This document shows, piece after piece, positions 48,151-48,754 of a stretch of DNA of 64,000 nucleotides. A model generated the notes under the pieces. It was not told the DNA's origin and did not search any database. It was given only the letters and a program-made list of their open reading frames with translations. Origin of the DNA: Eledone cirrhosa (Eukaryota); contig OZ024747.1 in the NCBI GenBank assembly GCA_964016885.1, positions 1,488,001 to 1,552,000 of the forward strand, given 5' to 3'. The translations under genes and the position numbers were made by a program. Positions within the stretch are counted from its first letter, which is position 1. Each line of letters opens with the position of its first letter.

Positions 48151-48393
48151 TATATATCTCTGTTCTTCTTTGAGCTAATATTATTATCACTGTGAACTGC
48201 GGAATACTCTAATTCCGATCCTTGTATAAATTGTTGAGCCAATAAATTCGAATGGTTGGGCTGCTCTCTCTAGCATTTCCCCCAATTGATGAGAGCCGTT
48301 ATTTGATGCAAATAACACGTGATTTCTCCCTACTCTGGGCAGCGTGCCTATTAGCTTTCTCTCTATGATGTGTCGTGAACAACACCCATACTC

Positions 48394-48463
48394 GCTGACT
48401 GAGGAATCTGTGGGCTGTTACACTGCACATTTCTGTGGTGAAACGAACTAGATTCGTATCAGC
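48394..48463 (+). ncRNA. Type I hammerhead
   Basis: GCTGA-CTGAGGA-ATC...GGT-GAAA-CGAA-CTAGA-TTCG-TA/TCAGC; stem II is weak. Confidence 0.8.
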
Positions 48464-48754
48464 AAGCTTATAGTTATGAGGTTGGTAATTTAAAACTCTA
48501 CTTCAGAGATTTGATTCTGACTTAGTTTTTTTCTATTTAATTGCTAACCTGTAGGTGTTGTTTACCATACAGTAACGGTTAAACTCACATGTAATAATTC
48601 TTTACACACATCTCACTGTGTAACACACTTTTCTCTGTGTAATATTTTTGTATTTGAGCTCAGATGAAAATTCTCTGTTCTTCTTTGAGCTAATATTATT
48701 ATTACTGTGAACTGCAGAATACTCTAATTCCGATCCTTGTGTATATATATATAT

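Follow-up and report, generated by a model that had tools for sequence, protein, structure and literature searches.

A non-coding hammerhead repeat family of Eledone cirrhosa whose copies end 3′ at two fixed sites within TA tracts and are probably moved in trans by a Penelope-like protein

Introduction

Insertions of Penelope-like elements (PLEs) are described as partial tandem copies with an inverted copy, a one-sided tail and a bias for (TA)n targets (PMC8557442). The pLTR alone suffices for integration in trans, and non-autonomous pLTR-forming families such as MRC1 exist (PMC8557442, PMC3846280). The Poseidon PAc protein of Anolis extends both strands of its target in vitro from two start sites internal to the RNA, an activity for which hammerhead cleavage is not needed; no start-site difference between the strands is reported, and the main text does not address pairing of start sites within one event (PMC11167929). 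A second comparable group, the animal non-LTR retrozymes, has been proposed to be moved by PLEs via circular RNA (PMC7229834; bioRxiv 10.64898/2026.07.22.740005). For a mollusc, PMC7229834 documents retrozyme RNA in circular form, and animal retrozymes have been proposed to be non-autonomous PLE derivatives (bioRxiv 10.64898/2026.07.22.740005).

The locus described here, in the octopod Eledone cirrhosa, resembles both. With PLEs, as described in PMC8557442 and PMC3846280, its family shares 5′ truncation, a partial tandem pLTR, an adjoining inverted truncated copy, a tail often at one end and the (TA)n bias; unlike them it has no ORF, and its tail measures 94 nt where 30-40 is usual. With animal non-LTR retrozymes, as presented in PMC7229834 and bioRxiv 10.64898/2026.07.22.740005, it shares a non-coding unit, a type I hammerhead and strong self-pairing. 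Its 544-nt unit compares with 150-450 bp (PMC7229834) and 51-972 (bioRxiv 10.64898/2026.07.22.740005) for retrozymes, and its copies are dispersed partial tandems of at most two units, whereas retrozymes form arrays (both sources).

Results

The insertion is an ordinary copy of a dispersed family

The window is the whole 64,000-nt stretch of contig OZ024747.1 that was analysed, and positions below are counted from its first letter. The element in it has the following parts.

48157..48740, + strand: the whole insertion, one 5′-truncated arm of the family with the 544-nt unit, 1.13 units long, ending at site A
48157..48225, + strand: terminal repeat, 5′ copy (about unit 1-73 of the family), its start being the truncation point of this copy
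48672..48740, + strand: terminal repeat, 3′ copy; it stops at site A (after 48739), which is among the two 3′ ends common in the family
48394..48463, + strand: predicted type I hammerhead motif, GUA cut after 48458, called from sequence and from conservation across copies
48651..48739, + strand: tail from site B (after 48650) to site A (after 48739), 89 nt here and 94 nt in the family reference
48148..48156, + strand: 5′ TA-type target flank, at the end of a 31-bp minisatellite
48741..48757, + strand: 3′ TA tract (target), interrupted later by a SINE-like repeat
48229..48230, + strand: point at which 14 nt are deleted in this copy alone
48366..48367, + strand: point at which 11 nt are deleted in this copy alone

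An earlier note on this DNA had reported a 69-bp direct repeat at both ends, a hammerhead, TA tracts on both sides and no ORF, and all four observations hold. The repeat (48157-48225 and 48672-48740) has a spacing of 515 and 2 mismatches in 69, and TA tracts border the insertion on each side. The longest stop-to-stop frame lying mainly inside the element is 76 aa, and an RT plus GIY-YIG ORF between pLTRs is absent from the unit, both in the ORF list and by tblastn with eight PLE proteins. The same note had taken the unit to be 515 nt. This is the correct spacing in the window copy, and it is a decayed length, because two deletions are private to this copy (seen in none of the others among 392 loci compared) and the family unit is 544 nt. 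The rare-allele rate of the window copy, 2.1%, equals the median of 209 arms, and the locus is an ordinary mobile-element copy, roughly 2% decayed.

Within the TA sequence a target duplication is indistinguishable at this insertion. Retrozymes, where they show a target-site duplication, have one longer than 4 bp; flanking repeats across the present family are almost all pure TA, with other simple repeats of at least 8 nt in 9 of 260 loci. Three low-coverage contig runs over the window gave depth at the family and the SINE only, and no piece spanned the stretch.

Several other repeats lie in the window. A 31-bp minisatellite of ~69 copies (46105-48154) stops exactly at the insertion, and the TATA stretch in its unit may have been the insertion target of the window copy. 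An abundant SINE-like repeat (48758-48935), of which 15 more pieces occur in the window, sits in the 3′ TA tract of the element between the halves of a candidate 11-nt duplication (48747-48757 and 48936-48946). On the minus strand, 15163-16505 holds degraded Penelope-like RT/GIY-YIG fragments with 27-40% identity to the proteins we fetched.

The window element belongs to a repeat family that is scattered through a 3.0-Gb genome rich in microsatellites, encodes no protein and carries a hammerhead. Searching with the insertion gave 1120 first-look candidates genome-wide, the 40 scored yielding 82 matches, and the hammerhead core with at most 1 mismatch gave 323 matches against 0 for a reversed control. 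From 290 loci fetched we removed 5 without an alignable arm, 25 re-fetches and 3 near-identical duplicates, which left 257 loci with 437 arms. Four pairs of loci (L079/L093, L107/L108, L109/L110 and L113/L114) have the same or nearly the same insertion and flanks and are likely segmental duplicates; three were dropped before counting, and both members of L079/L093 were retained. Our literature search, which left most subscription papers outside, found no published account of this family or of per-event counts of start-site pairing; supplements or Repbase may hold the family.

The hammerhead core is conserved across copies

Read from the sequence, the motif consists of stem I (48394-48398 with 48459-48463), CUGAGGA (48399-48405), a long stem II, GAAA (48440-48443) and a 4-bp stem III (48444-48447 with 48453-48456), followed by the GUA cut after 48458. 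With a stem III of 4-5 bp, the family differs from the minimal hammerhead motifs of animal PLEs as given in PMC4209133; a type I hammerhead in a non-coding repeat unit is a retrozyme feature. At gathering score over the window, and at E<=10 over 48000-49000, Rfam returned no hammerhead. The unconstrained fold keeps the hammerhead core closed (-25.8 kcal/mol; forcing it open gives -13.8), so the call draws on motif, pairing and conservation across copies. All 100 shuffles of the 515-nt unit fold less well than the unit itself (z -4.7). None of the 35 positions in the core and inner stems is polymorphic, whereas stem II and loop III have 14 polymorphic positions of 39 (p 4e-5 for the difference) and other parts 46 of 431 (p 0.04). 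Stem I covaries at 264:339 (85 T-A, 82 C-G); this change is linked to other subfamily sites and counts as one event.

The window copy holds one hammerhead. Two whole motifs occur in 4 of 437 family arms and two cut sites are crossed in 8 of 437; sources able to release a hammerhead-cut monomer exist and are rare.

3′ ends are fixed at two sites and 5′ ends vary

Among 95 arms picked by hammerhead pattern alone, 84 have the 3′ end, from which reverse transcription begins, in one of two windows, site A (unit 67-84) and site B (unit 512-531), which together cover 38 of 544 unit positions; the two sites lie 94 nt apart. TATATA stands at the end in 78 of these 84 on-site arms. In a later held-out set 16 of 20 3′ ends were on site, counted by eye, and exact junctions to TA numbered 277 for site A and 133 for site B. 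The 5′ ends vary freely and are spread over the unit in the 257 loci. Since 3′ ends are fixed and 5′ ends spread, the length of the 69-bp repeat marks nothing other than the truncation point of the window copy.

Measured against one unit, arm lengths vary continuously between -321 and +361 nt. A length above one unit was found for 83 of 385 arms, the longest reaching 1077 nt (1.98 units), and long arms run upstream into a further pass of the unit and not into an ORF (257 loci). At unit 329-346, immediately downstream of the cut, 5′ ends are more frequent than expected (20 against 9.75, p 0.003, in a TA-rich window chosen after looking), which is only a hint of some cut templates.

Inverted pairs combine one A end with one B end

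Many loci carry an inverted arm joined head-to-head to the first, mostly with an overlap or gap of a few bases; the 257 loci contain 157 such tail-out pairs. Their outer ends are AB in 114, AA in 1 and BB in 0, with an off-site end in the remaining 42, so that 114 of the 115 pairs with both ends on site are AB (p 6e-33 against half). By eye, 13 pairs in 20 loci fetched later comprised 8 AB, 0 AA, 0 BB and 5 off-site. The 94-nt tail between the two start sites is thus present at one end only, and, unlike in the published Penelope-like cases as described in PMC8557442 and PMC3846280, this one-sidedness is counted here (114:1:0). Perfect AA or BB palindromes might have been lost or under-assembled.

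Inverted arms of one locus agree at 1529 of 1616 subfamily sites (94.6%) and repeated passes within one arm at 590 of 626 (94%), compared with 55% for random pairs. Rare variants are common to inverted arms in 94 of 635 cases (14.8%) and to passes in 25 of 356 (7%), against 0.7%. This sharing of subfamily sites and rare variants argues that each insertion comes mostly from one source; gene conversion could add to the similarity within loci. At L177:1088-1519 the inverted arm is three tandem copies of unit 430-503, with repeated template jumping or slippage as a possible origin.

Hybrid insertions point to a likely mobilising enzyme

Genome-wide, 10,595 GIY-YIG candidates were found, of which 150 were scored and 50 loci inspected for the unit. 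Fetched loci carry frames with an RT plus GIY-YIG at the C terminus and a CxxxxCxxC linker, as given for Neptune and Nematis (PMC8557442); we call them Neptune-type by this linker motif alone and not by a tree. Such ORFs are encoded at L321 (minus strand, 938 aa), L323 (plus strand, 1096 aa) and L324 (minus strand, 636 aa), the 636-aa ORF having a GIY-YIG and a weak RVT_1 match. In the L324 family the hammerhead-like motif is minimal, and copies end 3′ within TA tracts at two sites separated by 35 nt. Its end pairing is looser: 3 AB, 2 scored AA (one of which ends between the sites) and 1 off-site, in a set biased to A ends. Long inverted arms occur on L323 and L335.

At two of 260 loci, L215 and L266, an arm of our family is joined 5′-to-5′ to an arm of the L324 family, with no TA tract between them and no remainder of the Neptune-type element on the far side. 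The hybrids are best read as single events that used two RNAs, and they indicate which enzyme is likely to do the mobilising. No DNA homology connects the unit with the pLTRs of the 50 GIY-YIG loci (best nhmmer E 0.11, blastn at chance level), short start-site look-alike motifs aside, and the partner assignment therefore draws on the two hybrids and the shared anatomy.

In the flanks of L038, L121, L190, L254 and L258, the TA tracts beside family copies also contain a different repeat, which is short and in part palindromic and is possibly a further non-autonomous element.

The RNA template

A linear cut monomer alone would impose a hard stop at the cut site, and it is ruled out by the 120 of 140 passes that go across. 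A linear master with unlike left and right units was also rejected, as no strongly recurrent left/right difference exists (5 of 48 at most, at a single site). Inserts of 180 nt in the unit were considered as an inherited left/right difference and proved to be separate SINE-like insertions whose duplications differ each time. The SINE-like repeat present at 48758-48935 of the window has gone many times into the ATT tract of the unit (unit 24-49, at L012, L047, L080, L085, L119, L129, L139, L142 and L143) and beside site A (unit 63-82, at L036 and L150).

Three templates are left. A hammerhead-cut and ligated circle has close to an even chance of being right, an uncut multi-unit transcript is a real possibility at a somewhat lower level, and a jump between cut monomers seems rather unlikely. 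No three-unit array was found among the matches listed (100 exact, and the first 100 of 323 core matches) or in the fetched loci, and long arms without long arrays would speak for a circle or a jump. Over 1576 sites the three-way distances come out even (83/79/83), and the per-locus bias is overdispersed (p ~0.009). The overdispersion and the smaller share of rare variants common to passes slightly favour conversion or a linear template of several units; taken with the excess of 5′ ends downstream of the cut, they lean against a circle or a jump. Back-junction reads at the GUA would not discriminate, because a ligated cut monomer should have the same sequence as the genome across the GUA.

Discussion

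The locus is very probably a 5′-truncated copy of a non-coding hammerhead family whose 3′ ends fall at two fixed sites in TA tracts and which a Neptune-type Penelope-like RT/GIY-YIG protein likely mobilises in trans. The endonuclease would cut both strands of a (TA)n tract, and each free 3′ end would prime reverse transcription at a site within the RNA, the one using A and the other B, aided by 3-5 nt of TA-like pairing. Synthesis would pass the hammerhead site and stop at random, leaving a terminal direct repeat wherever it ran beyond one unit (69 bp in the window copy), and the two primed ends would be joined head-to-head. PAc offers a close likeness, with AT-rich DNA cut, both strands extended and two RNA-internal starts bounding a tail; its starts are described as adjacent and not homologous to the target, whereas A and B lie 94 nt apart and are TA-like (PMC11167929).

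The earlier note had proposed reverse transcription of a circular RNA slightly past its start, with aligned copies beginning at variable points on a 515-nt circle. That synthesis exceeds one unit has proved right, and about 1.13 units is not a special length. A circle copied from an arbitrary point for ~1.1 units, with permuted ends, accounts for arms longer than one unit and for passes that cross the cut; it also fits a unit that folds far better than its shuffles and the mollusc precedent for circular retrozyme RNA (PMC7229834). It is very improbable all the same, as 84 of 95 arms start at one of two fixed sites, only 5′ ends vary, and lengths are continuous and not gathered near 1.1 units. 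The free start points are refuted; the circle itself survives within the trans-mobilisation reading. The partial tandem pLTR that the note offered as its alternative is supported by fixed 3′ ends, variable 5′ truncation and 83 of 385 arms above one unit.

Taken further, that anatomy could mean that the copies are truncated ends of an unseen autonomous PLE with the unit as its long pLTR, the more so as autonomous PLEs look the same and the unit was sought in just 50 of more than 10,000 GIY-YIG candidate places. We consider this improbable: long arms (to 1077 nt, 257 loci) enter another pass of the unit and not an ORF, the unit itself matches none of the eight PLE proteins tested, and the tblastn matches of those proteins in 19 of 290 family loci are, where inspected, separate neighbours or the L215 hybrid. 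A local tandem duplication or unequal crossover after a single-unit insertion, giving an incipient satellite, would suit a region rich in minisatellites and is a route proposed for retrozyme arrays (bioRxiv 10.64898/2026.07.22.740005). It is extremely improbable in view of dozens of dispersed loci that have overlaps of unlike length and the same two end sites, of inverted arms that obey the same rule, and of the absence of a three-unit array among the matches listed or the fetched loci. The note had also judged the 69-bp repeat too long for a target-site duplication, and we concur. Nothing other than its position at both ends speaks for a duplication of host DNA, which is almost certainly wrong, since the 68-bp segment has ~890 candidate places genome-wide and was part of the element in the 30 loci inspected.

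A more specific form of the trans-mobilisation reading is tentative, and we hold it to be doubtful. Here the family would be a circular-RNA retrozyme copied by a dimer of the Neptune-type protein, which would prime the two strands of one cut always at one A and one B and roll round the circle; the hybrids would capture an enzyme that had its own RNA at one end while the retrozyme occupied the other. If so, the retrozyme circle model and Penelope two-ended integration would be united in one system, with recognition by RNA structure and not by shared sequence.

The family is filed as a non-autonomous PLE. It works like a retrozyme, but the criterion for retrozymes is a tandem of two or more units that all contain a complete hammerhead, and the window copy holds one. 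Its insertion anatomy is already known for PLEs; to this the A-plus-B rule and the hybrids contribute details of mechanism that can be tested. As a short, protein-free substrate, the family has recorded Penelope-type integration many times over, and its near-strict pairing of A with B turns the known remark that a tail is often at one end into a rule that any mechanism must explain. Two questions, how inverted and tandem pLTRs form and whether animal hammerhead repeats move by way of circles, can both be tested in vitro with a 544-nt RNA.
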